A stretch of 64,000 bases of DNA from Promethearchaeota archaeon (GTDB lineage: Archaea > Asgardarchaeota > Lokiarchaeia > Sigyniarchaeales > SOKP01): assembly GCA_019057795.1 (NCBI GenBank), contig JAHLWS010000087.1:1-64000 (forward strand), given 5' to 3'. The number at the start of each line of letters is the position of its first letter. Position 1 is the stretch's first letter. Both the position numbers and the translations under genes were made by a program. The notes beneath the pieces are model-generated. The model did not search any database, was not told where the DNA came from, and saw only the letters and a program-made list of their open reading frames with translations. Positions 23,236 through 39,255 of the stretch are shown here, in pieces.

Positions 23236-24106
23236 TCCTATGTCTTTTTAAAGCTCTACATTCTTCGTCGTAACATTCTAAGGATTCCTTCTCTTGATCA
23301 ATAAATCTATTAGCGCGTTTCAATAGATTATCAAAATCTACGATATGACCATCGACATCAGGGCCGTCAACACACGCAAATTGAACGCCTCCGTCAAGCG
23401 TTGAAAAGCGGCAACCACCACACATTCCAGTTCCGTCAATCATAATTGTGTTTAGGGAGACAAATGTTTTTACTTTAGGTAAATCACTAGACCCTTTAGT
23501 TGTAAGAGCAACAAATTTCATCATTATTAAAGGTCCAATTGCGATAACAATGCTTATTTTTTCTCTTTTCATTATTTCTGAAAGTGGTACAGTGACAACT
23601 CCTTTAGTTCCCTCGCTTCCGTCATCTGTACAAATAATTACTTCATCGCTTACTGAACTCATTTTTTCTTTCCAAAACAATAATCCGGTATTTCTAGCAC
23701 CTAATATCGAAATAACTTTATTTCCTGCTTCCTTTAATTCTTTTGCCTGAGGATAAATTGGTGCAATTCCAATCCCACCTCCAATTATCACTACGGGATA
23801 TTCGTACTTTTTAACATGAATTTTATTTCCTAAAGGCCCCACTACATCAAGTATCGTATGCCCTACTTCTAAATGTGAGAGCAATTTCGTGCTTTTTCCA
23901 ACAACTTGAAATACTATAGTTATCGTTTCTTTCTCTCGATCGTAATCTGCAATGGTTAATGGAAAACGTTCGCCAGTTTCATTGATTCTTAGTAATATAA
24001 AATTTCCCGCAAATGCTTTTTTAGCGATTAAAGGAGTAGAAATTATCATTTCAAACACAATACCGCTAGTCCCAAGTTCGTTTTTTTCTAAAATTTCAAA
24101 TGGCAA
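23222..24106 (-). CDS. nfnA: NfnA/SudB-like FAD/NAD-binding [2Fe-2S] subunit
   Basis: GERFPLTIAD, GPLG, GGGIGIAP, DDGS, DGTGMCGGC...ACVDGP. It overlaps the downstream NfnB fusion. Confidence 0.9.
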   Translation of the reverse strand: MPFEILEKNELGTSGIVFEMIISTPLIAKKAFAGNFILLRINETGERFPLTIADYDREKETITIVFQVVGKSTKLLSHLEVGHTILDVVGPLGNKIHVKKYEYPVVIIGGGIGIAPIYPQAKELKEAGNKVISILGARNTGLLFWKEKMSSVSDEVIICTDDGSEGTKGVVTVPLSEIMKREKISIVIAIGPLIMMKFVALTTKGSSDLPKVKTFVSLNTIMIDGTGMCGGCRFSTLDGGVQFACVDGPDVDGHIVDFDNLLKRANRFIDQEKESLECYDEECRALKRHRSEVS

Positions 24107-24598
24107 TTTATTATCACTAAATTTAATATTATAAGTTTATAATCTCTTCTTATAGGATTTAAAATCAATTAGATATTTTTAAATTAATGATTATTAATAA
24201 GAAGAAGTCAAAAGTTCAAAATCGATAATATAAAGAAAAAGTATATTAAAATGTTGATGATGGTTGGTATAGACTCTGAAGAAGTTTCCCAACTTAGTAT
24301 GATCGTTTCCATTAGTGATTTACTCAATATTTTGAAAAATCTGAATCTTCTACAGCACATTTAGATAATAAGAATTAAAAAAGATCATAGAAAAAAAGAA
24401 TTAATTATTAAATTTCATCATATAGCAATTTAAAAAAGCTTGATAAGAAAAATTATGATAATTCTATTTTTGATAATAACAATTATTCTTGTCAAATGAG
24501 ATAAAAATCTGTTTATCCGAATATTTATATATTTCTGTCCAGAATTGTTCTATGGTAAGAAATTAAATTAATCTTAATTACTTAAATGCGTTAATTCA

Positions 24599-25228
24599 AT
24601 GGAAGTTTTAGAGTTTCATCCTATAAAAAATAAAACGGTTAATGTCTATTTAATAAGAAGAGAAGACAGAGATTTATTAAGTTTACATAATAGTAATTTA
24701 GAAAAAATCATAGAAGCAGAAAAATTTAAGTTTGCAATTGTTGATTTTAACGATCCTGAGGTTAAAAAATATTATCAGACTCCTTTATCAGAGTTTATAG
24801 AGAAATTCCATTTGCCTTATTACGAAGTTGAAATCCCTGAAAGTATTAAATCTTATTTTTATGTTGAGCTTTTAGACTTGGAAGTACAGATAGAAGAATT
24901 AGAGGGAGAATATGAAAAACTTCTTTTGAATAATCAAAAAGATACATTTAAAGCTCAGAGCTTAAACTCCTGGATATATTTGTTAAAAGATAAAGTGGAA
25001 TATACTAAAAACCTATTAGAATATACCATAAAACCAAAATGGATTGTAAAAAAAATATTAGATGTTGTAAATAACATCAAAAATGATAATTTATCTATAA
25101 TCCATTTTGCTCATGAAGATTTAATTTCTGAACTGAAAAAATTATTTGAAGAATATAATATCAAAGTCATAAAATATGATATTCGAGAAGAGAAATTAAA
25201 ATCAATCGTAATGTTAAAGGAGGGATGA
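24599..25228 (+). CDS. Hypothetical protein, paralogous to the N-terminal domain of the next gene
   Basis: Shared blocks LPYYEVEIPE / IPYEFVDIPD and WIYLLKD / WKQLLKD. ATGA overlap with the next gene. Confidence 0.7.
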   Translation: MEVLEFHPIKNKTVNVYLIRREDRDLLSLHNSNLEKIIEAEKFKFAIVDFNDPEVKKYYQTPLSEFIEKFHLPYYEVEIPESIKSYFYVELLDLEVQIEELEGEYEKLLLNNQKDTFKAQSLNSWIYLLKDKVEYTKNLLEYTIKPKWIVKKILDVVNNIKNDNLSIIHFAHEDLISELKKLFEEYNIKVIKYDIREEKLKSIVMLKEG

Positions 25229-26895
25229 AAATAATGCAAGTTTTAGAATTAAAACGATTAAAAGAAAAAAAACTTAAATTAATATTAGTTGAGAGTGAAT
25301 TTAGGATAGATTGGGCTTTAGAATTACCAAAAGAAGAAGGAATACTGGGTAATTTATTTTTTGTTTCTAGGGCGTACATAGAATTTATTAAAGATTTAGT
25401 GAACAAATACCACCCTAATTTCGTAGTAGAAGATAAAGGAATGCGCTCAAGTGAAGAACCATCTATTGATGATGAATTTGGAGCGATTTTTCTAAATGCA
25501 GATATCCCATATGAATTTGTGGATATTCCGGATTATGCATTAAATGTAATTTCAGCACCACTAATGGATAAGAAAGGTTTTATAAAAAAAATCACAGAAG
25601 AGATTGAAAGTTATAAAAAAATGGGTCGTGTACATTATAACGATCCTAATTTTCAACAGTTAATTATTTGGAAACAATTATTAAAAGATGATTTCAAAGC
25701 ACAAGAAGATGAAATAAGATATAAAGTCCGTGAAGCTTGGATGATGATGACTATCTTAGAATTAGCCAAAAAACAAGAAAAAAACCAATTAAAAGCATTT
25801 TTTATTACTGATAAAAGTCATTTTGATGGTATCACATTTTTAGCTAAAGAATTGGATATAGGAATTGAAATAATTAATCTTAAGAAAGTTACAGAATATC
25901 CTGATGAAGAAACATCGATTAATGACTTATTGAATAGATCTATACTTGAAATAATGCCTATAAAAGTTATAAAAAAAGAAAAAGAAGAAAGAATTTTATA
26001 CTTTTTTGATACGGATGAGTATTGTTCTCCTTTTGATACAAATATGGGCTATGATGCGGGATTTGATATAGTAATACCATATTCTAGAATGAAAGCAGAC
26101 AGTGTCTCAAGGCTAGTTCAAGATGCTATGTTCTCTCGAAAAGCGGGAGCTTCTTCAGTTTATTTTGTTGGTGGTTCTGATGTTATAGAAAGTGAAAAAA
26201 TTGCGGAGGAAGTTTTGAAAACAATTATTCCTCCATTTGAATCTCCTGTAATTATAGATCCACGTGGTTCTCATACAACAGCTTCAGCAATAGTTGCAAA
26301 AACACTAGAGGTTGCAAGAAAACATGGATTTTCAGATTTATCAGGTAAAAAGATAATTTGTTTAGGAGGAACTGGCCCTGTAGGGCAAATTTCCGCTCTA
26401 ATTGCTTCAAAACTTAAAGCAAAAGTAGTCATTACTTCAAGAAGAGAACAATTCGTAAAAGAATTGGCAAAAGATTTGACTAAGAAGGCAGGAAGAGGTG
26501 CCACTAAGATTATAGGAGAGCCCGCAAATTCAGATGAACAATATCTGAAAATAGTGAAGGACGCAGATATAATATGGTCTGTTGGTAAAGCAGGAGTCCA
26601 AATAATCTCAAATAAATTAATGAACCAACTACCTCCAAATAAAATTGTCGTAGATATTAACTTGGTTCCCCCCTATGGAATAGAAGGAATGAAACCAGAC
26701 TATTATAATACGGAGTTCTATCCGGGTATTTATGCGATAGGTGCTCTTAACATAGGACGATTAAAATACAAAATTGAGAGGGAAATCTTTAAGAAAGCTT
26801 TAAAGACAAAAGGTAAAAAAGTCTTTGATTATAATATTGCTTTTGAAATTGCTAATAAGATAGTATTTGGCGAGGAAATAAAAATCTTAGTTTAA
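25225..26895 (+). CDS. NAD(P)-dependent methylene-H4MPT/H4F dehydrogenase (MtdA/MtdB family) with a ~250-aa extra N-terminal domain
   Basis: ILYFFDTDEYCSPFDTNMGYDAG, VQDAMFSR, DPRGSHTTASA, GGTGPVG, DINLVPPYGIEG, IGALNIGRLKYK. Confidence 0.88.
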   Translation: MKIMQVLELKRLKEKKLKLILVESEFRIDWALELPKEEGILGNLFFVSRAYIEFIKDLVNKYHPNFVVEDKGMRSSEEPSIDDEFGAIFLNADIPYEFVDIPDYALNVISAPLMDKKGFIKKITEEIESYKKMGRVHYNDPNFQQLIIWKQLLKDDFKAQEDEIRYKVREAWMMMTILELAKKQEKNQLKAFFITDKSHFDGITFLAKELDIGIEIINLKKVTEYPDEETSINDLLNRSILEIMPIKVIKKEKEERILYFFDTDEYCSPFDTNMGYDAGFDIVIPYSRMKADSVSRLVQDAMFSRKAGASSVYFVGGSDVIESEKIAEEVLKTIIPPFESPVIIDPRGSHTTASAIVAKTLEVARKHGFSDLSGKKIICLGGTGPVGQISALIASKLKAKVVITSRREQFVKELAKDLTKKAGRGATKIIGEPANSDEQYLKIVKDADIIWSVGKAGVQIISNKLMNQLPPNKIVVDINLVPPYGIEGMKPDYYNTEFYPGIYAIGALNIGRLKYKIEREIFKKALKTKGKKVFDYNIAFEIANKIVFGEEIKILV

Positions 26896-27029: not shown

Positions 27030-29783
27030 TTAGTTGAGAAACAAGAGTTTACCAATAAAGCTTGTTAGATCCACGACTTTAATTTTGTTTTTTAATTCTT
27101 TCTCTTCGTTCAAATAACAATTAAAGTGGGCTAAACACTTGGGGCAACTAACAATTAGATACTCGGCACCAGTATCGATCGCCTCTTTAATACGGGTAGC
27201 TTGAATCTCTTTTGAGTACTCATTACAACTTATATAAGCGGAAACTCCACAACATAAAGCATCTTTTTTATTACTCTCCATCTCAATTAATTCAATAAAT
27301 GGAATCTTATTTAATACTTCGCGGGGCGCATCGTAAACATTACTCAATCGTCCTAATCTACATGCGTCGTGATATGTAACTCTTATTTTTTCAGAAATTG
27401 GGAATTTAACATCGTCTATTAAGTGTTCCTTTAGGATGTACTCTGTTACGTGATAAATCTCAAAGTTAAACTCGTCAGTTCCTTTAAATAATTTTGGATA
27501 CTCATATTTCCATGTATGATAACCCTCTGCACAACTAAGTATTAATGTTTTTACTCCAGCGTCGTTAAATAACTGAACATTGTGTCTTGCTAACTTTTCA
27601 AATGTATCAGTATCTCCTTGCCATAAACTATCGTGTCCACAACATTTTTCGTTTGAAAGAACTACAGGCACAATTTCTTTTTGGTTTAAAAGACCTATTA
27701 CTACTCTTGGAATCTTAAGGAAATCCAACGCATTATAAAAAGGAACAACGGGTTGTATACCATAACTACAATCTTGTATATTAGATTCATCGCATGAATT
27801 TACGTAAACATCTAATTTTTGATCTGTACTACAACAAATATTGCAATTTAAACACCTACTTGCTTCTTGGATTGCACTTTCTTCCGTGAGAGGTAATTCG
27901 ACCTCATTAAAGCTTCTTAATCTTTCTTGTATAGGCAACAAATCTATACATTCTTTGGGCATTTTACTGGCTTCTTTTTTAGGTATTGGAGCAAGTTTAG
28001 AATATTTTTTAATGACTCTATTTTTTTTTAAACCAACTCCTCTAAGATATCTATCAATAGAAATCGCTGCATTATTTCCATTTCCTATGGCTCTAACAGC
28101 TATCCCTTCGCCTGGGATTACATCTCCCCCTGCAAAAATGTTAGGAACATTAGTTTGCATTGTTAATTCGTCTGTTATAATTCTCCCCCACCGGTCTATT
28201 TCTAATTGGTCATGAGCAGCTTCTAAAAGCGTTAATTCTGTACCTTGTCCAATAGCAAGTAGCAGAAAATCAAGGTTCATTTTAAACTCTGATTCTTCTA
28301 TAGGAATTGGTCTTCTCCGACCAGATTTATCTAATTCGCCAAGCTCCATACGAATGCATTCTATTTCTTTAAGAATTCCTTCTTGATCTCCAATTGCTTT
28401 TATTGGATTTGTTAAAAATTGAAACTCAACATTTTCTTCCTTTGCCATTTCAATTTCTTCTTCTTGAGCGGGCATTTCCTTTTCAGAACGACGATAAATC
28501 ACTACGACTTTCTTAGCACCTAATCTTAAAGCAGTTCTAGCAGAATCCATGGCAACATTTCCTCCACCTACTACGCCTATAATTTTATCTTTGAAATCAA
28601 ATTGTTTTTTTGTTAAATTTTTATCTTTGAGAAAATTTAGACCGCATAAAACGTTCTTAAGGTTCTCTCCTTCCATTTTGAGCCCTAAACAAGTCTGCTG
28701 CCCTATCGAAATAAAAAAGGCTTTATAGCCCTGTTTTTCTAAATTTTTAAAAGATAATTTAGGTCCTACGGGAGTATTTAATTTTATTTCAACTCCCATT
28801 TTTTCGATAAAGTCAATTTCATAATCTAAAATATAGGCAGGTAAACGATATCTTGGAATCCCAGATCGTAAAGTCCCTCCTTTATAAATCTCTGCTTCAA
28901 ACACAGTAGGTTTATAACCTTGTCTCGCTAAAAAATAAGCTGCGGATAACCCTCCAGGACCAGCACCTATTATAGCTACTTTTTCCTTAAATTGCTTAAC
29001 TGGTTTAATACTGGATTTTGCTTTGTTGTTTAATTCCCAATCTGCGATGAATCTCTTTAAAGATCGAATACCAAGAGCTTCATCGATATCTTTGCGATTA
29101 CATTCAAGCGCACAAGGCTCTGTACAAACTCGCGCACATATCATAGGAAAGGGGTTGCTTTCCCTAATTAAATCAATAGCTTCTTGAAATTTACCTTCCG
29201 AAATTAATGAGATATAACCTTGAACATCAACTCCTGCGGGACACGCATTAGAACACGGAGGAATGGAATTCATAAAAGGAAGGCACCCCATAAAATAGGC
29301 GGTTTCCCCTTTGTCTGTAAATTTTAATTTAGTGTAATCTAAAAACCCGAGTTTGTTATCGATACTAACATTGTCATTTGCCATTAATTGAGGTAAACTT
29401 GAATATACTCTATCGTGATGACATTCAAGTTGTTCTGTCTGTAAAATCTCAGATTCGGAAGTAAGAGTGCGGAGACTTTTAATAATTTCTACAAAATCTA
29501 CACCAGTATTATCCTTAAACATAGGACAATACTCCATGCATTGCCCACAAGTTAAGCAGTTCCAAATATTATTGTTTTCTAACGCTTCCTCTAGCGGTAG
29601 GAAAGTCAAATCAGTAATCAATTTTCTTGGAAAAAACGTACCTACAAAACTTGTAGGACATACGTTAACACAACGATTACAATCGTAACAATAATTTGCG
29701 TTGGCTATTACTTTATTAATGACTTCACTATAAATTTTAGACCTTTCTTTTTTAACACTTTCAGTATCTTTAGATTCAGTCAT
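27030..29783 (-). CDS. HdrD-like (HdrC plus two CCG domains) protein with an inserted NfnB/GltD-like FAD/NADPH module
   Basis: CYDCNRCVNVCP, CLTCGQCMEYCP, AYFMGC; insert PPCSNACP...GAGPGG...GGGNVA...YRR...RCLNC; then EKCCG, SCAEG, YHDACRLGR, CCG, SCPKC. Confidence 0.88.
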   Translation of the reverse strand: MTESKDTESVKKERSKIYSEVINKVIANANYCYDCNRCVNVCPTSFVGTFFPRKLITDLTFLPLEEALENNNIWNCLTCGQCMEYCPMFKDNTGVDFVEIIKSLRTLTSESEILQTEQLECHHDRVYSSLPQLMANDNVSIDNKLGFLDYTKLKFTDKGETAYFMGCLPFMNSIPPCSNACPAGVDVQGYISLISEGKFQEAIDLIRESNPFPMICARVCTEPCALECNRKDIDEALGIRSLKRFIADWELNNKAKSSIKPVKQFKEKVAIIGAGPGGLSAAYFLARQGYKPTVFEAEIYKGGTLRSGIPRYRLPAYILDYEIDFIEKMGVEIKLNTPVGPKLSFKNLEKQGYKAFFISIGQQTCLGLKMEGENLKNVLCGLNFLKDKNLTKKQFDFKDKIIGVVGGGNVAMDSARTALRLGAKKVVVIYRRSEKEMPAQEEEIEMAKEENVEFQFLTNPIKAIGDQEGILKEIECIRMELGELDKSGRRRPIPIEESEFKMNLDFLLLAIGQGTELTLLEAAHDQLEIDRWGRIITDELTMQTNVPNIFAGGDVIPGEGIAVRAIGNGNNAAISIDRYLRGVGLKKNRVIKKYSKLAPIPKKEASKMPKECIDLLPIQERLRSFNEVELPLTEESAIQEASRCLNCNICCSTDQKLDVYVNSCDESNIQDCSYGIQPVVPFYNALDFLKIPRVVIGLLNQKEIVPVVLSNEKCCGHDSLWQGDTDTFEKLARHNVQLFNDAGVKTLILSCAEGYHTWKYEYPKLFKGTDEFNFEIYHVTEYILKEHLIDDVKFPISEKIRVTYHDACRLGRLSNVYDAPREVLNKIPFIELIEMESNKKDALCCGVSAYISCNEYSKEIQATRIKEAIDTGAEYLIVSCPKCLAHFNCYLNEEKELKNKIKVVDLTSFIGKLLFLN

Positions 29784-30061
29784 ATTAATTACTTTTCAGT
29801 CTTTAATCTTGTTAAATATAATTTACAGAAATTTATATATACTTTTATTATAGTACAAAAGATATAATTTTCACTATAAGAAGCAAATATGCTATTTCAT
29901 AAATTTCTTTTTGTATAGCTTAATTCTCAAAATTCTAATTTGATTCGATTTCGTTTTAAAATTGGGGAATTTTAAATAAAATAAAAACTAAGTAAAAATT
30001 AATTTTAAAAAAAACATTATTTTTAGAGTGTTTAACATCAGAGGATTAGTTAGTGTAGAAG

Positions 30062-30077
30062 TTGTTCCTATGAACAA
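30062..30077. promoter_or_regulatory. Perfect inverted repeat TTGTTC-ctat-GAACAA in the divergent hdrD/aor intergenic region; candidate operator
   Basis: 6-bp arms with a 4-bp spacer, ~80 bp upstream of aor. Confidence 0.35.
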
Positions 30078-30152
30078 TCAACCTAATAAATAGTAGTTCT
30101 CTATATTAAATATTAACTCTCTATACTAAAAAAAATCAAAAAACAAAATTTA

Positions 30153-32084
30153 GTGAAAAACATGAGTAAAGCTAAAGATATAACTTTACCCGAGGAAGTT
30201 AAAGGATACTCTCAAGTAAGAATCGATGTAGATTTAACAAGCGGTAAAATAGGAAAAACAACTTTATCCAATGAATTTTGCCGAGATTGGATTGGCGGTT
30301 ATGGTTTTGGAGCAAAAGTTCTATGGGACGAGTTAAAGCCAGGTGTAGACCCCTTAGGTCCAGATAATGTATTTGTTTGGGCTATTGGTCCCTTCCCTAC
30401 TACAATTTTACCAACTAGCTCAAAATATGGCGTATTTGCTAAATCCCCATTAACGGGTGTATTTGGCATGGCTATTTCTTCAGGTTCAGTTGGAGCCCAA
30501 GCCCGACGTGCGGGTATTAATATGATCGTGATAAAAGGAAAGGCTTCTGAACCCGTTTACATGGTTGTAGATGATGACGACTACTATTTAGAGCCATGTT
30601 CGAAAACTTTATGGGGAAAAGGAAATTTTGAAACAGAGGATTTATTACGAGAAGAATTTCAAGATCAGAGACTAGCTGTTATGTCAATAGGACCAGCAGG
30701 GGAACGATTAAGTAGATTAGGGTGCATCACAAACGATAGAAACCGACAAGCGGGTCGTACCGGTATGGGGGCTGTCATGGGCTCTAAAAACCTCAAAGCA
30801 ATAGCATTTAGGGGTACTAAAGGATTGAAAGTTGCTCAACCCGCTGAATTTTACAAATTAGCTAAGAAACTAATCAAAGTGGCTAATGGTCCTGCAACTG
30901 CAAAATATCGCGATTTAGGAACCCCAGCAGGAATAACCAGTTATAATAAGTTAGGAATGTTCCCTACTAAGAATTTTCGGGAAGGTACATGGGAAGAAAT
31001 AGATAATGGCGCCTTTACAGGAGACACTCTTAATATTGATTGGGTTGTAAAAAAAGTAGCTTGTTCCCAATGCTCTATTGCGTGCGATCATTTAGCAAGG
31101 GTACCAAAAACTCACCCCGAATATCCTAATTTAGTCGCGTCTATAGATGTTGAAATGTGCTATTCATTTGGTTCAAATATGGGTAATTCTGATTGGCCAA
31201 CGGTATTTAAATGCGTTCAATTGTGCGATGATTTAGGTATTGACGCGATCTCAGCCGGGGTGACTGCCTCAATGGCGGCAGAATTGTTTGATCTAGGGCT
31301 TATAACTAAAAAAGATTTAGGTTATGAGTTACCATTCGGTTCAACGGTCAATTTAGTGAGATTCACCGAAGAAATGTGTCTTGGAAAAGGATTTGCAGGT
31401 GAAATCTTTGGAGATGGCTGTAAACAAGCAGGAATTCGATTAGAAGAAAAAGGAGTAAAAAACGCAGGCTATTACGGAATGCACATAAAAGGTTTAGAAA
31501 TGCCCGCTTTTGACCTTCATGGTATGACCTCCTTTGCAGTTGGAGAAAGCGTATCTATTAGAGGCGCTTGCCATTTAAGGAATGGAGCATATGGACTCGA
31601 TGCTAAAGGAAAGTTCGACAGGTTCGGATACGATAAAGGTCTTGAACGTGGTAAGTCAATTGTAGCAGTTGAAGATGTTTATGGCATAATTGATTCATAT
31701 ATAATATGTAAATTCACTCGTGGAATTTATGAAAACGATGCAGAAATGGCAAAGGTATACGAACTTGTAACTGGTATTCCACACACAGAGCAATCATTGC
31801 TGACAAGAGGAACTGCAATAGTTACGCTTTCTAAATGTTTCAACATTCGAGAAGGCTGGACACGAGCAGACGATCATCCTCCCGAAAAGTTCTTCAAAGA
31901 TGCCCATACAAAAGGACCAGCGAAGGGTGTTACCTTAAAGGAAGAGGGATATCAAAAATTATTGAGCGGATACTACGAAGCTAGAGGCTGGGACACGAAA
32001 ACTGGAATTCCAACCGACGCAACTCTAAAGAAGTTAGGTTTGGATTTTGTTATTGGAAAATTAAAGCCAGCAGGAGGTAAATAA
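30153..32084 (+). CDS. aor: Tungsten-containing aldehyde:ferredoxin oxidoreductase family protein (likely start ATG 30162)
   Basis: AKSPLTG, IGPAGE, AGRTGMGAVMGSKNLKAI, CSQCSIAC, DDLGIDAIS, RGACH, YYEARGWD. Confidence 0.93.
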   Translation: MKNMSKAKDITLPEEVKGYSQVRIDVDLTSGKIGKTTLSNEFCRDWIGGYGFGAKVLWDELKPGVDPLGPDNVFVWAIGPFPTTILPTSSKYGVFAKSPLTGVFGMAISSGSVGAQARRAGINMIVIKGKASEPVYMVVDDDDYYLEPCSKTLWGKGNFETEDLLREEFQDQRLAVMSIGPAGERLSRLGCITNDRNRQAGRTGMGAVMGSKNLKAIAFRGTKGLKVAQPAEFYKLAKKLIKVANGPATAKYRDLGTPAGITSYNKLGMFPTKNFREGTWEEIDNGAFTGDTLNIDWVVKKVACSQCSIACDHLARVPKTHPEYPNLVASIDVEMCYSFGSNMGNSDWPTVFKCVQLCDDLGIDAISAGVTASMAAELFDLGLITKKDLGYELPFGSTVNLVRFTEEMCLGKGFAGEIFGDGCKQAGIRLEEKGVKNAGYYGMHIKGLEMPAFDLHGMTSFAVGESVSIRGACHLRNGAYGLDAKGKFDRFGYDKGLERGKSIVAVEDVYGIIDSYIICKFTRGIYENDAEMAKVYELVTGIPHTEQSLLTRGTAIVTLSKCFNIREGWTRADDHPPEKFFKDAHTKGPAKGVTLKEEGYQKLLSGYYEARGWDTKTGIPTDATLKKLGLDFVIGKLKPAGGK

Positions 32085-32088
32085 AAGA

Positions 32089-32643
32089 ATGTCAACTATT
32101 AGAACTAAGAAAAGAGGCGGAGTTATTCATCAATTCATAGTTGTAGATCCGAAACTCTGCACTGGCTGCGAAACTTGCGAAAGCGTTTGCTCTTTTGTCC
32201 ACGACGGCGAGTTTAACCCAATTAACACACGAATCCATAGAGTTAGAATCGAACCAGTATTTAACATTGCTCTTGCCTGCCAAAAATGCGAGGAGGCACC
32301 ATGCATTCGAAGTTGCCCCGAAAAAGCTTTGGAGAAAGACCCTGAAACGGGTTCCATCATTGTAGACGACGACAAGTGCAACGGATGCGGCTATTGTTGC
32401 CGGGCTTGCGAATTTGGAGCGATGACAATGCACGTAATAAGCCAAAAAGCGCTTGTCTGCGACCTTTGCGAAGATATGAAAGACGAATTTGTCGAGGAAG
32501 GCGGTAAAAAGGAGCCTCAATGCATAATAGTTTGCCCCAAGGAAGCCATAACTTTGAAAAATGTAGAACAAATTGGCGAAGAAACCCGAATTGACGCTGT
32601 AAAACGCTTATTTGGCGATGTTTCGGAATTTAGTAGCAAATAA
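32089..32643 (+). CDS. 4x[4Fe-4S] ferredoxin-like AOR partner subunit (DmsB/CooF type)
   Basis: CTGCETCESVC, CQKCEEAPCIRSCP, CNGCGYCCRAC, CDLC...PQCIIVCP. Starts 4 nt after aor. Confidence 0.9.
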   Translation: MSTIRTKKRGGVIHQFIVVDPKLCTGCETCESVCSFVHDGEFNPINTRIHRVRIEPVFNIALACQKCEEAPCIRSCPEKALEKDPETGSIIVDDDKCNGCGYCCRACEFGAMTMHVISQKALVCDLCEDMKDEFVEEGGKKEPQCIIVCPKEAITLKNVEQIGEETRIDAVKRLFGDVSEFSSK

Positions 32644-32778
32644 CTTAATTTTTTTATCTTATTTATTTATATTATTTTTTTATTTCTCTTATTTTCAAAT
32701 GACTATTTGAATGGATATTCTCACAATATTTTTTTCCTACTCGAAAAATTTAAATATTTCGAGTATATATTTTTTATA

Positions 32779-33030
32779 ATGACCATTCATACTGATACTA
32801 TAATACTAAAAATTGGATCAAAAGGAGAAATCTTTCCTCCCAAGGAAATTCGAAAAAGACTTGGTTTTGAACCAAATCAACCCATTTTATTATATATTCA
32901 TCACGATCAATTAATCATAAGAAAACTTCATTCTATTGAGGAAATTTTGAATTCTTCACCAAAGACTAAAATTAGTTATCACGCTTGGAAACAATTTAAA
33001 GAGGAATTAGGTGAGGACTATGAAATATGA
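32779..33030 (+). CDS. vapB: AbrB/MazE-fold antitoxin (ATG 32779 is more likely than the track start 32707)
   Basis: KIGSKGEIFPPKEIRKRLGF...LIIRK. ATGA overlap with the PIN gene. Confidence 0.82.
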   Translation: MTIHTDTIILKIGSKGEIFPPKEIRKRLGFEPNQPILLYIHHDQLIIRKLHSIEEILNSSPKTKISYHAWKQFKEELGEDYEI

Positions 33031-33530
33031 AAATTCTAATTGATACATCATACTTTTTACCTCTCATTAAAATTGGGATTGAAAATATTCCCCAAACTAC
33101 CTTGGTTAATCTTTTAGCTAAAACATCTTTTGAATATTTTTATTCAAATCTCACTCTTTTTGAACTCACAGCGAAGGGATTAAAAATTTCATCTCAGGAA
33201 AATATAATAACGCCACAAGACATTAGGATTGGAATTGATGCCATTCAAAACGACTCGCGTCTCGTAGAAAAGTCGTTTATTGATAATCCATTAATCATCG
33301 AATTAGCATCTCAATTAAAAGCAATTCATAAAGATACAATTGATTGTTTGATTTTCGCTACAGCTATCTGTATTTGTGATTGTATCGTTACCATGGATGT
33401 ATCATTCTTCGATCAAATCAATAAAGTGCCCTCGTTAATCAATGCAATTAGAAAAATCAATGAAAACTTCCATTTTTGGTTCAACGACCTCTCAGATGAT
33501 TTAAGGGCTCTTAAATCAATTGATTCGTAG
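33027..33530 (+). CDS. vapC: PIN-domain toxin
   Basis: ILIDTSYF, TLFEL, DTIDCLIFATA, IVTMD. Confidence 0.85.
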   Translation: MKILIDTSYFLPLIKIGIENIPQTTLVNLLAKTSFEYFYSNLTLFELTAKGLKISSQENIITPQDIRIGIDAIQNDSRLVEKSFIDNPLIIELASQLKAIHKDTIDCLIFATAICICDCIVTMDVSFFDQINKVPSLINAIRKINENFHFWFNDLSDDLRALKSIDS

Positions 33531-33787
33531 AATGTTCGTATGTTTCAATTTTTTCTTATTTTTATTCAATTTATTTTTAGTATTTCAATTTATATCGTAA
33601 AATCTAAATTTAATAAGAGATAATTACCAGAATTGAAAACAAACTAAGTGAAGAGTAAGAATAATTGAACTTTAATAAGAAGTATTATTTACAATATCAT
33701 TATTATTTAATCAAATACAATTAATACAATTCGTTATAGGATTAAACCTTTAAAATTAGGAGGATACAAATATAAAAGGTGGAAAAA

Positions 33788-35749
33788 TTGTCTGAAGAAC
33801 AGACCAATAGTAAACACAAAATCGGAGCATTTATATGTAGATGAGGAGTTAATATTGGAGGCATTTTAGATGTGCCTAAAATTGTAGAAGAGATTGATAA
33901 ACTCGACGATGTTTGCGCTTATGAGTATTTAAATTTGTGTACTTCTGGAGGAGCTGAATTTATGAAAGAACAAATAGACGAAAAAGGCTTCGACAGAATT
34001 ATCATGGCTGCTTGAACTCCAATAACACATGAACCAGTATTTCACGCTATTTTAAAAGAAGCAGGATTGCCACAGAGATATTTGGAATTTGTCAACATTA
34101 GAGAACATTGTAGTTACGTTCATCAAGCTATGGAAGTAAGAGATGACGCTACACTTAAAGCAATAGAATTAGTAAAAGCAGGGATTTCAAGATCGCAATT
34201 TCTGGAAGAAATACCTACAAAAACAGTTGATGTAAATCCTACATGTTTGGTTATTGGTGGAGGGATTGCTGGCTTAAGTGCTGCAATTGATTTGGGAGAT
34301 GCAGGATATAAAGTTTATTTAGTTGAAAAGAAAACTACCATCGGTGGTCGTATGAGTCAATTAGATCGAACATTTCCGACAGACGATTGCAGTATCTGAA
34401 TATTGGGGCCAAAGATGTTAGAAGCTGATCGGCATCCAAATATAGAAATGCTTACTTATAGTGAAGTAGAAAAAGTCGAAGGATATATAGGTAATTTTCG
34501 AGTTCAAGTAAAAAGAAAAGCGCGATTTGTCATTGAAAGCGAATGTACTGGGTGTGGCGCGTGTACGGAAGTATGTCCGATATACATTCCTAATTATTTT
34601 GATGAAAATCTGTCGGCTCGGAAGTGTATCGATATTTCATTCGCTCAAGCAGTTCCGGCAGTTTACGACATTGCAAGAGAATCGTGTGTAGAATGTTTTG
34701 CATGTGTCGATTCTTGTGATTTGGAAGCAATTGACTTTAGCCAACAAGATGAAATAGTAGAACTTGAAATAGGAACAATAATTGTGGCAACAGGATGGGA
34801 TATATATCAAGAAGACGATTATGGGTACGGAAAATACGAGAATGTAATCACACAAATCCAATTAGAGAGAATCCTTGCTCCAAATGGTCCTATGTTTGGT
34901 CATTTGGTACGCCCCTCAGATGGAAAGCGTCCAAAGAAAATATTATTCATTAACTGCGTAGGATCACGAGATTTAAAAAAGAATGAATATTGTAGCGTAG
35001 TTTGTTGTAATTTATCTGTTAAGAATTCCAAACTTATAATCTCTGAATATCCCGATTCCGAAATTACAGTATGTTATATAGATATGAGATGCGGAGGGAA
35101 GATGTATGAAGAGTATTATAAAAGAGCCAGAGATGCAGGAATTCTTTTTGTTAAAGGGATGATAGGAAGCATAGAAGAAGATCCATTAACACAGAATCTT
35201 ATCGTTCAATTTGAACCTGTTGGAACCGATACAATAGTAAAACTGGAAGTTCATATGGTTATTTTGTCATCGGCATCGCTACCTTCTCAAGGCACAAATG
35301 AAATTGCTGCTATAATGAATATCGAGAAAACATCAGATGGGTTCCTAAAAGAAGTTCATCCACGTTTAGAACCAATCAAGACGAAAGTTCCAGGAATTTA
35401 CTTAGCTGGTTCTTGTCAAGGTCAAAAATCGATTGAACTAACAGTAAGCCAGGCTAAGGGAGCAGCATCTTCAGCAGGCATTCCAATGGGACGAAGAGAA
35501 TACGTTATTGAATTAATACGCGCCCAACCAATAGACGAAAGATGTGCAAAATGCTATAAATGTATTGACGCTTGTCCATACAATGCAATTTCTATTAATG
35601 ATGAAGGAACGATTGTTGTAGATGTAATAAGTTGCAGAGGTTGTGGAATTTGCACTGCAATATGCCCTTCTAAAGCAATAGATTTAGCGCATTACAAAGA
35701 TGTTCAATATTCAGTTTATATTGACGAATTATTGCCTATTGAGGATTAA
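33788..35749 (+). CDS. hdrA: Heterodisulfide reductase subunit A, selenoprotein with 3 Sec (UGA at 33842, 34013, 34397); 653 aa
   Basis: One frame from TTG 33788 (AGGTGG upstream) to TAA 35747-35749. The UGAs fall in FICRUG, MAAUTP and TDDCSIUIL, where HdrA has conserved Cys. This joins track ORFs 34067..34399 and 34403..35749. Also NIREHCSYVH, GGGIAG and two ferredoxin domains. Confidence 0.95.
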
Positions 35750-35762
35750 AGAGGTAATTAAA

Positions 35763-36197
35763 ATGAGAGACAACGATATTAAAATTCTATCCTTTTTATG
35801 TTTAAAATGAGGCTATGGTGCAGCTGATATGGCGGGAACAATTAGAGCTCAATACCCCGTATCTTTAAGAACCGTTTTAGTTCCATGCACAGGAAGAATC
35901 GGTTCAGATGTAATTATGAGAGGTTTTGGGAGAGGTGCTGACGGAATACTCGTTGTAGGATGATACATTGGAGAATGTGATTATGAAAAAGGTAACTATT
36001 TTGCTCATAGATCAATCGCCTATATAAAAGAAGTGCTTAAAACCGTCGGACTTAACCCAAAAAGAATAAAAATGGAATATTGTAGTTCAGCGGAAGGTTC
36101 GAAATATCGGGAAGTAGCAATTGCTTTTGATGAAGAAATACGGAAACTTGGACCGAGCCCATTACGTAAAAAAAAAGAAAACTCCTCTAAAAAATAA
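35763..36197 (+). CDS. mvhD: MvhD/VhuD [2Fe-2S] adaptor subunit, selenoprotein with 2 Sec (UGA at 35808, 35961); 144 aa; absent from the ORF track
   Basis: MRDNDIKILSFLCLKUGYGAADMAGTIRAQYP...VPCTGRI...GADGILVVGUYIGECDYEKGN...SSAEG...LGPSPLR, ending at TAA 36195-36197. Confidence 0.95.
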
Positions 36198-36199
36198 AT

Positions 36200-36258
36200 G
36201 TGTTAGCTAATGAGGCTGAGTTAAAAAAACGAGAATTCAGCTGAAGAAATGGGAGCAC
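36200..36258 (+). ncRNA. Eukaryote-like (Loki-type) SECIS element
   Basis: AUGA 36210-36213; stem GGCUGAGUU (36214-36222) pairs with AAUUCAGCU (36234-36242); A-rich loop AAAAAAACGAG; GA 36243-36244; lower stem GUGUU/AGCAC. It begins 3 nt after the mvhD stop. Confidence 0.88.
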
Positions 36259-36368
36259 CATATAACACATTAAAAAATTTTATAAAAATAAATATATCAA
36301 AAAAAAAAAGTTTAAAATTTTTTAAAAAAATTAAATCAAAAACAAGAAATTAAATTTACAGTTTTGAG

Positions 36369-37508
36369 TTGGAAAACATGGATACAATAGATGAATATCT
36401 AATAAAGATTGAAGATTTTCCTAAATTATTAACAACGTTATTAAAAGAAAAAGTTGTTAGCAAAATAATTGGGACAAAAGTAAAGGTAGATAAAAAAACT
36501 CAGAAAGAGGACAGATTTACGATTTCTCCAGAACTCTACGAGAAACCAGAAGATATTTCGGGTTTTCCCTTAACTAACCTAATTGCATATGGGTACGCTA
36601 GAACAGATTCAGCTGCGAAATTTTTACATAAGTCAGTTAACGGAGCATTGAAAGAAAAAGTAGGACTTATTGCTCGCCCTTGTGACACAAGGGGGATAAT
36701 TGAGTTAGTAAAAATTAGACAGATCAATTTAGATAATCTTTTTATCATTGCTTTTGAAGACAGAGGAATGGTGATAAACGTTTCTCGCCAGATAAAGAAG
36801 ATGGAAGGTATTGATCCGACTAAAGTGGTTAAGGAAAAAATCGGAGATAAGGGTTTAATTCTCAAGTTTGAAGATGGAAGCACTAAAGAAGTAGGATTAG
36901 ACATAGCAGAAAATTGTACGCGCTGTGTTAGAAAAGTTCCGGTTGTTGCTGATTTGGGAATTAGCGATCTAATATTGCCTATCGATTCTGACGAAATAAT
37001 CCTTAAAGTATATTCTACTAAAGGAGAAGAACTTGTAGAAAAATCAAAAATTAACAAGAAGCCATTACCTGATGACATGAAAACAAAAGACGCGGAAAAG
37101 CTTAAAGAAATCAAAGAAACAGCCCTCGCAAAAAGAGTAAAGGATTTAGAAGAATGGGACAAGCTTTCTCAAGAGGAAAAGATGACTAAACTACAAGCAT
37201 GTACTATGTGTGGAATGTGCATTAGAGGATGCCCTGTTTGCTACTGCGTTGACTGTATTCTAACGAAGAAGCGAAAAACAAAAACTATAAATAAAGAGAC
37301 ATATCAATTAACTCGAATTGCCCACGTTGCTGACCGGTGCGTAGAATGTGGCAACTGTGATAATAATTGCCCAACGCATTTACCGTTATCTCTGTACTTT
37401 CAATCGTTAAACGACTCATTTAAAGAAAAGTTTGGTTACAATGCTGGTGAGAGCTTGGAAGATATACCCTTTAGATCTGGGAAAGCAATAAGCGAAATGG
37501 AGTTATAA
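36369..37508 (+). CDS. FdhB/FrhB-like (F420-dependent dehydrogenase beta) subunit with C-terminal 2x[4Fe-4S]
   Basis: GLIARPCD, QINLDNL, ENCTRC, ADL, CTMCGMCIRGCPVCYCVDC, CVECGNCDNNCP. Confidence 0.85.
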   Translation: MENMDTIDEYLIKIEDFPKLLTTLLKEKVVSKIIGTKVKVDKKTQKEDRFTISPELYEKPEDISGFPLTNLIAYGYARTDSAAKFLHKSVNGALKEKVGLIARPCDTRGIIELVKIRQINLDNLFIIAFEDRGMVINVSRQIKKMEGIDPTKVVKEKIGDKGLILKFEDGSTKEVGLDIAENCTRCVRKVPVVADLGISDLILPIDSDEIILKVYSTKGEELVEKSKINKKPLPDDMKTKDAEKLKEIKETALAKRVKDLEEWDKLSQEEKMTKLQACTMCGMCIRGCPVCYCVDCILTKKRKTKTINKETYQLTRIAHVADRCVECGNCDNNCPTHLPLSLYFQSLNDSFKEKFGYNAGESLEDIPFRSGKAISEMEL

Positions 37509-37580
37509 AAAACATAATTATTAAAAATTTAAAAAATAATATTTTTAATTAATAATAAAGAAAAACAAATGTGAAGAATT

Positions 37581-38345
37581 ATGTCGTTACCGGCTAAAAA
37601 AGCAATCGAGATTGATTCAAATATTACTCATTACATTTATAAAATGCTAAACCACGAAATGATTCTAAAATACGACGAAAGCAAGTGTATTGAGTGCGGT
37701 TTTTGTCACCGAGTTTGTCCCGTAACCATTTCAATTTACGATGAACCCTTAAAAAAGACGGCAATCGGAACGCCAGAAGAAATGAGGGTAGAGTCTGACA
37801 AAAAAATCGTAGTTGATGTAGAGAAATGCATCTGGTGCGGAAGTTGCACTTGGATCTGTCCTGGATACACTTTGGAACTAATTATAAACGGAGAAAACAA
37901 GATATTATTGGTCGAAAACGGTTCTCTTCCAGAATTTGAGGAAGAGGTTCGCACTTTAGAGAACGGTCAGAAAGTTCGCAAGGTAGTAGAAGGTTCTATT
38001 ACAATTACTTGCGATGAAAAAGATAACAAAGTTATTGACGCATTCGCGGACGAATGTGCTGTTGGCGCTATGTCTCGGGAAGGAAAGGAAGTAGTTGTAG
38101 ACATTGATAAGTGTATTCTATGTTTCAAATGTACAGAAGCCTCAAAGAACTACGATAATATTAGCGTAAAGGTTTTCCGCGATAGATTCAAGAAAGTAAA
38201 AGGAGAACCATCGTCTGTATGGAACGCTATAAATTTGCGAGTGCTTGGAAAAGAAGGAAAAATTAAAGGTATTATGAGTCGAAGTCAAAACAAACTCGCA
38301 GATGCCGTTATGCGCTTATTAGGCAAGGAATTTAGCGAGGAATAA
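37581..38345 (+). CDS. Polyferredoxin-like Fe-S protein (FwdF/MvhB-like)
   Basis: CIECGFCHRVCP, CIWCGSCTWICP and a degenerate third pair (ECAVGA, CILCFKC). Confidence 0.75.
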   Translation: MSLPAKKAIEIDSNITHYIYKMLNHEMILKYDESKCIECGFCHRVCPVTISIYDEPLKKTAIGTPEEMRVESDKKIVVDVEKCIWCGSCTWICPGYTLELIINGENKILLVENGSLPEFEEEVRTLENGQKVRKVVEGSITITCDEKDNKVIDAFADECAVGAMSREGKEVVVDIDKCILCFKCTEASKNYDNISVKVFRDRFKKVKGEPSSVWNAINLRVLGKEGKIKGIMSRSQNKLADAVMRLLGKEFSEE

Positions 38346-38470
38346 AACTAACTATTATTTTTAATTCATTTCTTAGTATTGCAATTTAACTCTCGTTTTT
38401 TCTTATTCTATATATAGCAAGAGATTTAAAGATAAAAGATGTTTATAATAAAATCGTTTTGATAAATAAA

Positions 38471-38923
38471 TTATTTTGAACTTATTTCTAAAAGATATTC
38501 TTCCGGAGTGAATGTTTTAATCTTATTTACCCAAGTAAAATGTTTTTTATTATATGTAATTAAAGGAGTATGTATTTTTTCACATTCAGTTCCGATCAAG
38601 AAATCTCTAAAATGATTTTTAAAAGGAAGTTGGTTTTTGTTTTCAAAAGCATTTTGAATGACTTTTGAAATCAACGAATTATCCCAATGTAAGAAAATTC
38701 CATCAAATTTTTTAATATCTTCAATAAACCCGTTCCAAGGAATACCTCGAATAATATAATAAAATCCTACCTCTAATTGTACAATTGTTGGCAGGAAAAC
38801 TTGAAATTTAAATTTATTTAGAGTCAAATAATTAATAAAATCATAATTTCTAAAAATATTTGAATCGAGAGCTAGCTTAAGTTTTGTATTATTCGATTTT
38901 TTAACTTCTTCTTGAGAACTCAT
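38471..38923 (-). CDS. vapC: PIN-domain toxin (likely start ATG 38923)
   Basis: ALDSNIF, VQLEV, RDFLIG, LITYNKKHF. ATGA overlap with the antitoxin stop. Confidence 0.85.
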   Translation of the reverse strand: MSSQEEVKKSNNTKLKLALDSNIFRNYDFINYLTLNKFKFQVFLPTIVQLEVGFYYIIRGIPWNGFIEDIKKFDGIFLHWDNSLISKVIQNAFENKNQLPFKNHFRDFLIGTECEKIHTPLITYNKKHFTWVNKIKTFTPEEYLLEISSK

Positions 38924-39255
38924 TCTTCCAACCCTGTTTTCCAATTGTTTAAAAGTATTTCATCTAAAGTATCAGTTCCTACAAACAATTTTTGTTGAAG
39001 AATTTTTCTATTTGGATCTAAATTCCAAATAATTTTTGTCGCTTCCTTTAATATCTTCTCAATATCTGATTTTTGTGTTTCTTTTATATTTAAATTGGCA
39101 TTAACTGAGATTTGTTTTTCTCTAAGAATGTCTCTTTCAAATAAAGTTAAAGCGCGTTTAATTACTTCGCTTTGAGTAATATCTAACCAAGCAGATAATT
39201 TTTTTAATCTTTTTCGTAGCCCTTCATCAATTGCTACTGTTGTTCTAATTGTCAT
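38920..39255 (-). CDS. vapB: Ribbon-helix-helix (CopG) antitoxin
   Basis: RTTVAIDEGLRKRLKKLSAWLDITQSEVIKRAL, directly upstream of the PIN gene. Confidence 0.82.
   Translation of the reverse strand: MTIRTTVAIDEGLRKRLKKLSAWLDITQSEVIKRALTLFERDILREKQISVNANLNIKETQKSDIEKILKEATKIIWNLDPNRKILQQKLFVGTDTLDEILLNNWKTGLEE

Follow-up and report, generated by a model that had tools for sequence, protein, structure and literature searches.

Conserved linkage of a predicted aldehyde-type tungsten oxidoreductase with selenocysteine-containing HdrA-MvhD genes in Lokiarchaeia

A 64,000-nt stretch (the window) of contig JAHLWS010000087.1 from a Promethearchaeota archaeon of the Lokiarchaeia (GCA_019057795.1) was analysed, in which positions 27030-38345, the region of interest, hold genes for an aldehyde:ferredoxin oxidoreductase (AOR), its four-cluster iron-sulfur (FeS) partner, and an HdrA-MvhD core of the kind found in Hdr complexes. 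The association of AOR with Hdr genes is conserved in relatives and recurs in other lineages, and the window is a Lokiarchaeial, selenium- and F420-flavoured variant of this uncharacterised AOR-Hdr association. We tentatively propose that the AOR (WorL) and its partner (WorS) are coupled electronically to the HdrA-MvhD bifurcation core, with AOR on the low-potential arm; the conserved linkage is established, and contact between the proteins, like the direction of electron flow, belongs to the proposal. Genes were called from an open reading frame listing with TGA read as selenocysteine (Sec), and Pfam domains support each of the nine genes of the region, all of which a first-pass annotation had already placed at the same coordinates. 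C87 denotes the contig of the window and C22, C5, C31, C62, C67 and C82 other contigs of the same genome; L numbers are individual loci, and g and f numbers are genera and families in the synteny comparison.

An AOR-FeS pair followed on the same strand by HdrA-MvhD-FdhB-like genes, 0.2-7.6 kb away, was found in 20 of the 22 informative genomes of the family. Searching from the FdhB-like gene, we found AOR-FeS upstream on the same strand at all 11 same-genus loci, and searching from AOR, a Sec-type HdrA lies downstream at 9 of 11 informative loci from other genera or genomes of the family. The outer flanks are variable: upstream of aor stands an HdrCB-NfnB fusion in either orientation, an NfnB-FrhB fusion, or a permuted HdrA-like gene accompanied by MvhD and an FrhB-type gene, and the downstream gene is retained in 3 of 11 cases. 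As the arrangement in the window is conserved in relatives, it is not due to chance. A single aor-hdrA adjacency would speak only weakly for coupling, because the 4.95 Mb genome carries about 12 AORs and about 13 HdrA loci (besides 12 MvhD genes and about 24 CCG proteins), and these numbers are what a fortuitous meeting of paralogues has in its favour; adjacency in 20 of 22 family genomes, recurring across lineages, makes such an origin very improbable.

Between the FeS gene and hdrA the window has a vapB (AbrB/MazE-type) and vapC (PIN) pair (32707-33530, plus strand). The first-pass annotation had suggested looking at relatives free of vapBC, and there aor-FeS indeed lies about 0.25 kb from hdrA (L051, L052, L054, L055, L084); the closest relative (Loki_b31, 98% identity) and several others belong to this type. 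The vapBC pair is an insertion at the FeS/hdrA junction, outside the redox system, and the junction is an insertion hot spot, since the gap varies so widely among relatives. Two AbrB/MazE-type plus PIN toxin-antitoxin pairs (32707-33530 and 38471-39255) flank the unit running from hdrA to the polyferredoxin gene.

Beyond the family, the orthologous AORs share 41-54% identity with the window AOR, against at most 38% for paralogues. In family f2 the orthologue is accompanied by Hdr genes at 4 of 4 loci, including that of the complete Ca. Lokiarchaeum ossiferum genome, in a string of HdrC-like protein, HdrA, MvhD, a 361-aa protein, AOR and FeS, with a TPR-CCG protein and a polyferredoxin divergent from it. 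The f2 HdrA is a Sec-free paralogue (42% identity), whose orthologue in the window genome is on C62, apart from the window AOR. The 361-aa protein was considered as a divergent FdhB-like subunit and rejected, for it has no similarity to that of the window, no Pfam or PDB match and no Cys motifs; such a Cys-free protein of about 360 aa (L071:8430-9515, L072:8930-10009; DSAG12_02803 type) stands between mvhD and aor in all f2 clusters. Among order-level relatives (f2, f4) no HdrA adjoins the FdhB-like orthologue, and in the complete f2 genomes G044, G055 and G050 this orthologue is located without HdrA or MvhD neighbours, 9-30 kb from the AOR-Hdr cluster. Family f12 (Thor) has, at 5 of 5 loci, an MvhD-HdrA-polyferredoxin set that diverges from AOR-FeS, and further out HdrC and a CCG protein. 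Together with the layout in the family of the window, AOR and Hdr genes are paired in three gene orders among Asgard archaea.

A scan of reference genomes revealed AOR, FeS, polyferredoxin, HdrA, MvhD, HdrC and CCG genes on one strand in a Woesearchaeote, and AOR-Hdr sets in a Brockarchaeote, several Bathyarchaeia, an Oscillospiraceae genome (with an NfnB-like gene) and a Chloroflexota bacterium. The AOR-Hdr association is thus recurrent and not obligatory, and it has been rebuilt more than once, as the linkage modes, the gene orders and the HdrA paralogue differ across lineages. In eight bathyarchaeial loci (L133, L136, L139, L144, L147, L150, L154, L163) a short CCG (HdrB-like) gene of the same orientation immediately precedes AOR-FeS, and an HdrA'-MvhD-HdrC-CCG set is often located at a distance of 3-6 kb; the CCG-AOR-FeS arrangement may represent a direct link from AOR to HdrB.

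The aor gene (30153-32084, plus strand) encodes the predicted large subunit of a pterin tungsten-type oxidoreductase with AFOR_N (1e-66) and AFOR_C (4e-95) domains. Its best PDB matches, all full length, are 1aor (P. furiosus AOR, 2e-94), 9mqx_D (WorL of A. mobile) and 8c0z_A (AorB of A. aromaticum). Aligned to 1aor, the protein retains the residues corresponding to PfAOR Cys288, Cys291, Cys295 and Cys494, Glu313 and His448, that is, the CxxCxxxC motif, the Cys of DSxxxC, and the Glu and His; the cluster-ligand cysteines and the catalytic Glu and His are invariant across 13 Asgard orthologues. The first-pass annotation had drawn an analogy with class II benzoyl-CoA reductase (BCRII), which is apt as a design. 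A BamB-like reading of the AOR itself fails: the best matches are bona fide AORs at about 1e-94, compared with 7e-45 for BamB (4z3w_A), which aligns to aa 24-426 only, about two thirds of the length, and membership in the BamB clade of benzoyl-CoA reductases is therefore ruled out. By its sequence, the window AOR is classed as an ordinary aldehyde-type WorL.

The FeS gene (32089-32643, plus strand) begins 4 nt past the end of aor and encodes a 184-aa small subunit of WorS/AorA type, recognised by Pfam and PDB matches, with 16 invariant cysteines, enough for four [4Fe-4S] clusters. Its best PDB matches are 9mqx_E (WorS), 6x6u_B (WOR5-S) and 8c0z_C (AorA). No twin-arginine (RR/Tat) motif was found at its N-terminus, hence the AOR-FeS pair is predicted to be cytoplasmic. 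AFOR domains, ligand and catalytic residues and an adjoining four-cluster subunit without a Tat signal, the features expected of a Class II tungsten oxidoreductase (WOR), are all present, and the two proteins are assigned to a cytoplasmic, Class II-type WorLS. Tungsten as the metal and an aldehyde as the substrate are predicted from AOR family membership; a search with TIGR03730 for WtpA gave no match.

The hdrA gene (33779-35749, plus strand, 656 aa), identified by Pfam and PDB match, has three in-frame TGA codons, and its product is a canonical HdrA, collinear with methanogen HdrA over the full length (PDB 9sfi_A, 2e-202). Sec occupies codons 22, 79 and 207 (TGA at 33842, 34013 and 34397). 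The adjoining mvhD (FlpD family, Pfam FlpD 1e-40; 35760-36197, plus strand, 145 aa) has Sec at codons 17 and 68 (TGA at 35808 and 35961). At the positions of the five TGA codons, Sec-free homologues from a sister family have Cys, and the third Sec of HdrA is conserved in 17 relatives. Right behind mvhD (36198-36270, plus strand) lies a hairpin resembling a selenocysteine insertion sequence (SECIS), with an AUGA...GA internal loop, a 9-bp upper stem and an A-rich loop, folding at -17.9 kcal/mol (z = -3.3). It was the sole SECIS-like candidate seen for five UGA codons in two cistrons; an Rfam scan of 32600-38500 matched no family, this hairpin included.

The next gene (36369-37508, plus strand) encodes a 379-aa FdhB/ElpB-like subunit with FrhB_FdhB_C and Fer4 domains (Pfam), a C-terminal 2x[4Fe-4S] domain and additional conserved cysteines. 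Its family profile matches 9t1s_M and 7bkb_E, both FdhB chains bound to Hdr, at 1e-44, and ElpB (8rvu_E) at 1e-38, which bears out the FdhB-like label of the first-pass annotation and identifies the protein as a true homologue of the Hdr-bound FdhB/ElpB chains. In solved Hdr complexes (PDB 7BKB, 8RVU, 9T1S), such chains occupy the place between the donor and MvhD.

The last gene of the region (37581-38345, plus strand) codes for a 254-aa Fe-S protein with PDB matches to FwdF (5t5i_F, 1e-16), FmdF (7bkb_K) and MvhB (9sw6_G), resembling the N-terminal ferredoxin modules of these proteins. The polyferredoxin of the first-pass annotation is thereby FwdF-like, with 12 conserved cysteines for about three clusters, rather than a long polyferredoxin. 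A paralogue occurs on C62 within an mvhD-polyferredoxin-fwdD-fwdB-fwdC-like string, the layout of the methanogen Hdr-Fmd supercomplex. This locus (C62:5023-9040, L180), with FdhD close by, is an Hdr-linked formylmethanofuran-dehydrogenase-type cluster in a non-methanogen.

Upstream of aor, a gene on the minus strand (27030-29783) encodes a 917-aa HdrC-NfnB-HdrB fusion, composed of an HdrC-like Fer4 dicluster domain (2x[4Fe-4S], aa 24-111), an NfnB/GltD-like part (Fer4_20 and Pyr_redox_2, aa ~173-680) and an HdrB-like part with two CCG domains (aa ~690-890); its PDB matches are NfnB-type chains, HdrC and CCG proteins. The HdrC and CCG domains agree with the HdrD-type fusion described earlier as divergent from aor, to which an NfnB module in the middle, a complete FAD/NAD(P)H module including two clusters, must be added. 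A homologue on C22, a contiguous, unsplit HdrCB, shows that the NfnB module was inserted where the first CCG domain begins, so that it splits this domain. The same domain has SCAEG in place of the expected CxxC, for which reason one non-cubane cluster of the fusion may be altered, like the reported case of BamD. Full-length fusion homologues adjoin aor in genera g1, g18 and g20, and an HdrCB-type fusion is a frequent, though not constant, neighbour of aor; the homologues in other genera are 54-61% identical, compared with 80-89% for AOR. The fusion is the only HdrCB-type protein near the AOR-Hdr genes of the window. In agreement with the absence of hydrogenase, FdhA and separate HdrBC noted in the first-pass annotation, no NiFe-hydrogenase and no protein of the molybdopterin/FdhA family was matched on C87, and no CCG protein other than the fusion was found there.

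Elsewhere in the genome, on C82, a canonical Mvh hydrogenase is accompanied by an HdrA-MvhD of its own. Four HdrA-MvhD pairs (window, C22, C5 and C31) have an FrhB-type gene behind them, CofE (268 bits) and CofH (461 bits) exceed curated cut-offs, and a CofG-like gene adjoins; this suggests that the organism uses an Elp-like, F420-linked input repeatedly. Proteins of about 1000 aa with HdrA segments in permuted order (aa 158-577, 19-283 and 337-667 of HdrA), followed by MvhD and an FrhB-type gene, are encoded at L086:3954-8592, L087:4069-8669 and L083:13229-17829, as well as on C31, C22 and C67 of the window genome. Such genes stand directly upstream of aor in some relatives and are reminiscent of the fused, permuted HdrA of BamE. 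The window also has redox genes just upstream of the region (20491-26895), namely an Mtd-like gene and nfnA, the latter with a 914-aa FrhB-NfnB fusion whose counterpart adjoins aor directly in some relatives.

Solved complexes show three electrical ports on HdrA, namely the MvhD arm, the side of HdrC/B and an inserted ferredoxin domain. The acid/aldehyde couple lies at about -580 mV. We propose that the HdrA of the window would likewise serve as a three-port hub. At the medium-potential port, by analogy, the FdhB/ElpB-like subunit would exchange hydride with F420 or a similar carrier and pass electrons through MvhD to the FAD of HdrA. At the high-potential port, the HdrC-NfnB-HdrB fusion would replace HdrBC and provide a link to a disulfide and/or NAD(P). 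The low-potential port would lead from the ferredoxin insert of HdrA through the FwdF-like polyferredoxin and the four-cluster subunit to the pterin site of AOR, again by analogy. With a potential of about -580 mV the acid/aldehyde couple belongs on the low-potential arm whichever way electrons flow. Acid reduction is a possible direction; in an amino-acid fermenter the reverse would be more likely, with aldehyde and a high-potential donor confurcating onto F420. This placement of AOR is favoured because BCRII and Hdr-Fmd offer precedents for it, the polyferredoxin is FwdF-like, and the polyferredoxin gene often lies between hdrA and aor. Complex prediction with family alignments and no controls, for the ferredoxin insert of HdrA, the FdhB-like subunit, the polyferredoxin and the four-cluster partner, gave 0.01 relative to a mark of 0.32 and speaks neither for nor against binding.

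Several observations weigh against the low-potential placement or against coupling as such. F420H2-driven acid reduction would be endergonic, by standard-potential estimates, if NAD(P) were the sole high-potential acceptor. The f2 and f12 clusters have no evident partner for MvhD and are equally compatible with AOR as the input: they hold AOR, FeS, MvhD, HdrA, HdrC, HdrB and polyferredoxin and no alternative input, and the f2 gene order is HdrA-MvhD-X-AOR-FeS. This leads to a different wiring, which we regard as unlikely, wherein AOR-FeS is the input module, either replacing FdhA on the FdhB-like subunit or binding MvhD, so that aldehyde electrons feed the FAD of HdrA and are split between the polyferredoxin/ferredoxin arm and the HdrCB-NfnB fusion (disulfide or NAD(P)+), making the system an Hdr-based counterpart of WorABCSL. 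In WorABCSL, whose chains are the second-best (AOR) and best (FeS) PDB matches of the window proteins, WorLS donates to a bifurcating core; the Fdh-Hdr complexes have a low-potential pterin enzyme (for formate) on the MvhD arm, and an NfnB-type module recurs in the window fusion and in the Oscillospiraceae locus L122. Conversely, in BCRII, the sole solved HdrA-type complex with an AOR-family enzyme, this enzyme serves as the low-potential output, the polyferredoxin separates HdrA from AOR in the gene orders of L119, L120, L121 and f12, where MvhD takes the far end, and MvhD in the family of the window already has its FdhB-like neighbour, as have the three AOR-free loci of the genome (C22, C5, C31). 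The donor role that the first-pass annotation had given to AOR is accordingly one of two live wirings, and not the favoured one, since in the solved Fdh/Elp-Hdr and BCRII structures FdhB is bound to MvhD and the low-potential output is where the AOR-family enzyme is found.

The other objections concern coupling itself. A T-run lies beyond the FeS stop codon, and a promoter-like element with a TTTAATAA box (33660-33682, plus strand), found by aligning hdrA upstream regions, is located 97-119 nt upstream of the hdrA start, followed by a conserved TTAGGAGG ribosome-binding site. Both the element and the site are kept in all 18 aligned sequences, regardless of the DNA further upstream, and the element occurs once in the window. 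On these grounds aor-FeS and hdrA-mvhD-fdhB-polyferredoxin constitute separate transcription units; a scan for bacterial-type promoters and terminators was uninformative for an archaeal host. Moreover, the FeS-hdrA gap differs among relatives in DNA content as well as in length, both exceptions to the family-wide linkage, in g20, have fusion-AOR-FeS alone with HdrA absent within 8.5 kb, and in Bathyarchaeia many AOR-FeS pairs lack an Hdr gene at less than 10 kb, from which it follows that AOR-FeS can stand alone.

These facts agree with a view without any physical complex, in which AOR-FeS would be a Class II WorLS reducing free ferredoxin and HdrA-MvhD-FdhB-like-polyferredoxin a separate Elp-type, F420-linked Hdr, the neighbourhood being kept through a common ferredoxin pool, regulon or metabolic task. 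In keeping with this view, HdrA-MvhD-FdhB-like genes occur without AOR in the class-level relatives L069 and L070 and on C22, C5 and C31 of the same genome. Nevertheless, the linkage persists although both outer flanks change, the pairing has been re-formed with another HdrA paralogue and in other gene orders (f2, f12, other phyla), and AOR and Hdr genes form a tight same-strand string in L071, L119 and L169, on account of which we consider separate enzymes somewhat unlikely. Thus, of the aor/hdrA coupling put forward in the first-pass annotation, the linkage stands, in the family and in other lineages, and the two gene sets are split into separate transcription units in the window.

The proposed coupling of AOR to the low-potential arm of HdrA might, with the same reservation as above, constitute a third bifurcating partner for aldehyde-type tungsten oxidoreductases besides Bfu and Bam, consisting of a canonical HdrA-MvhD core and a FwdF-like polyferredoxin with a third port that is swapped between lineages (FdhB-like/F420 and HdrCB-NfnB in the window lineage, HdrBC elsewhere). 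If so, the Lokiarchaeial enzyme would link F420, NAD(P) or thiols with the acid/aldehyde couple and its very low potential, and would fill a node absent from current models of Asgard syntrophic metabolism. Asgard energy models, and hence models of eukaryogenesis, rely on a few assumed routes (MvhADG-HdrABC, FdhA and ferredoxin), to which an AOR-Hdr unit would add one that uses the most reducing organic couple open to an amino-acid fermenter. Such a unit would be an addition to the known flavin-based bifurcating enzymes, too, and would widen the five-class scheme of tungsten oxidoreductases. Since cultured strains carry the sister cluster (Ca. L. ossiferum, and MK-D1, where it is transcribed), the idea is testable beyond metagenomics.

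In a literature search, no paper proposing or characterising an AOR-Hdr enzyme was found, nor any system of the same composition, which accords with the statement of the first-pass annotation that this combination is not a characterised system. The 2026 classification of tungsten oxidoreductases comprises five classes and, in the part of it considered here, mentions Hdr-type subunits for benzoyl-CoA reductase only. In the cultured strain MK-D1, DSAG12_02801-02808 encode FeS, AOR, a hypothetical protein, MvhD, HdrA, HdrC, HdrB and an MvhB-like polyferredoxin, all transcribed at 202-320 reads per kilobase per million (RPKM) (Imachi et al. 2020, Supplementary Table 4); the RPKM range of that strain is narrow for all genes and indicates transcription, not co-regulation. 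The main text of that paper does not discuss this block, and aldehydes are unmentioned in it. In composition and order the block matches the f2 cluster holding the orthologue of the window AOR; it differs from the window in its Sec-free HdrA paralogue (42% identity), its separate HdrC and HdrB and its lack of an FdhB-like gene.

Among tungsten enzymes, AorABC of Aromatoleum aromaticum (Class III WOR, PDB 8C0Z) similarly combines a WorL, a four-cluster WorS and a flavin/NAD(P) subunit, and the fusion-AOR-FeS trio of g18 and g20 shares its logic; the flavin module of the window, however, is NfnB/GltD-like and resides inside an HdrCB-type protein, and AorC is not among the PDB matches of the fusion. 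The Class IV enzyme WorABCSL of Acetomicrobium mobile couples aldehyde oxidation to the reduction of ferredoxin and NAD via a Bfu module (PDB 9MQX; PMC12318220). Of the proteins with solved structures, its WorL and WorS are among those most closely related to the window AOR and FeS proteins, and they illustrate that WorLS can be plugged into a bifurcating module, yet that module, BfuABC (NuoEFG-like, with FMN), is unrelated to HdrA, and no Bfu domains occur in the nine genes of the region.

Among HdrA complexes, the methanogen FdhAB-MvhD-HdrABC(-Fmd) and ElpABC-HdrABC assemblies have been solved (PDB 7BKB, 8RVU, 9T1S; PMC12350162, PMC13580544); a polyferredoxin wires HdrA to the W/Mo-pterin enzyme Fmd, and in Elp-Hdr, F420H2 feeds HdrA through ElpB and ElpC (PMC12350162, PMC13580544). 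The window resembles them in having a canonical HdrA, MvhD and an FdhB/ElpB homologue in a row, an FwdF/MvhB-like polyferredoxin and F420 synthesis genes in the genome. It differs from them in the absence of FdhA/ElpA and of separate HdrBC, in a pterin enzyme that is AOR and not Fmd/Fwd, in a host that is no methanogen, and in the Sec content of HdrA (three) and MvhD (two).

BCRII of Geobacter metallireducens, Bam[(BC)2DEFGHI]2, has been resolved by cryo-electron microscopy, with BamBC as the low-potential output of the HdrA-like BamE via its ferredoxin insert, the Sec-containing MvhD-type BamF as input adaptor and the HdrD-like BamD as high-potential output (bioRxiv 10.64898/2026.04.10.717634). 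Compared with BCRII, the Fe-S partner in the window has four clusters instead of three, the AOR is an aldehyde-type WorL instead of BamB, HdrA is canonical with 656 aa whereas BamE is a fused, permuted dimer, NuoE/F/G-type (BamGHI) domains are absent from the nine genes, which include an FdhB-like subunit in their place, an NfnB module forms part of the HdrD-like protein, and the genes are distributed over two or three transcription units. Both systems nevertheless combine an AOR-family pterin enzyme and its Fe-S partner with an HdrA-type flavoprotein, a Sec-containing MvhD-type adaptor and an HdrCB/HdrD-like subunit, and the AOR-Hdr association would extend two known kinds of enzyme, the modular HdrA complexes and the multi-subunit tungsten oxidoreductases.

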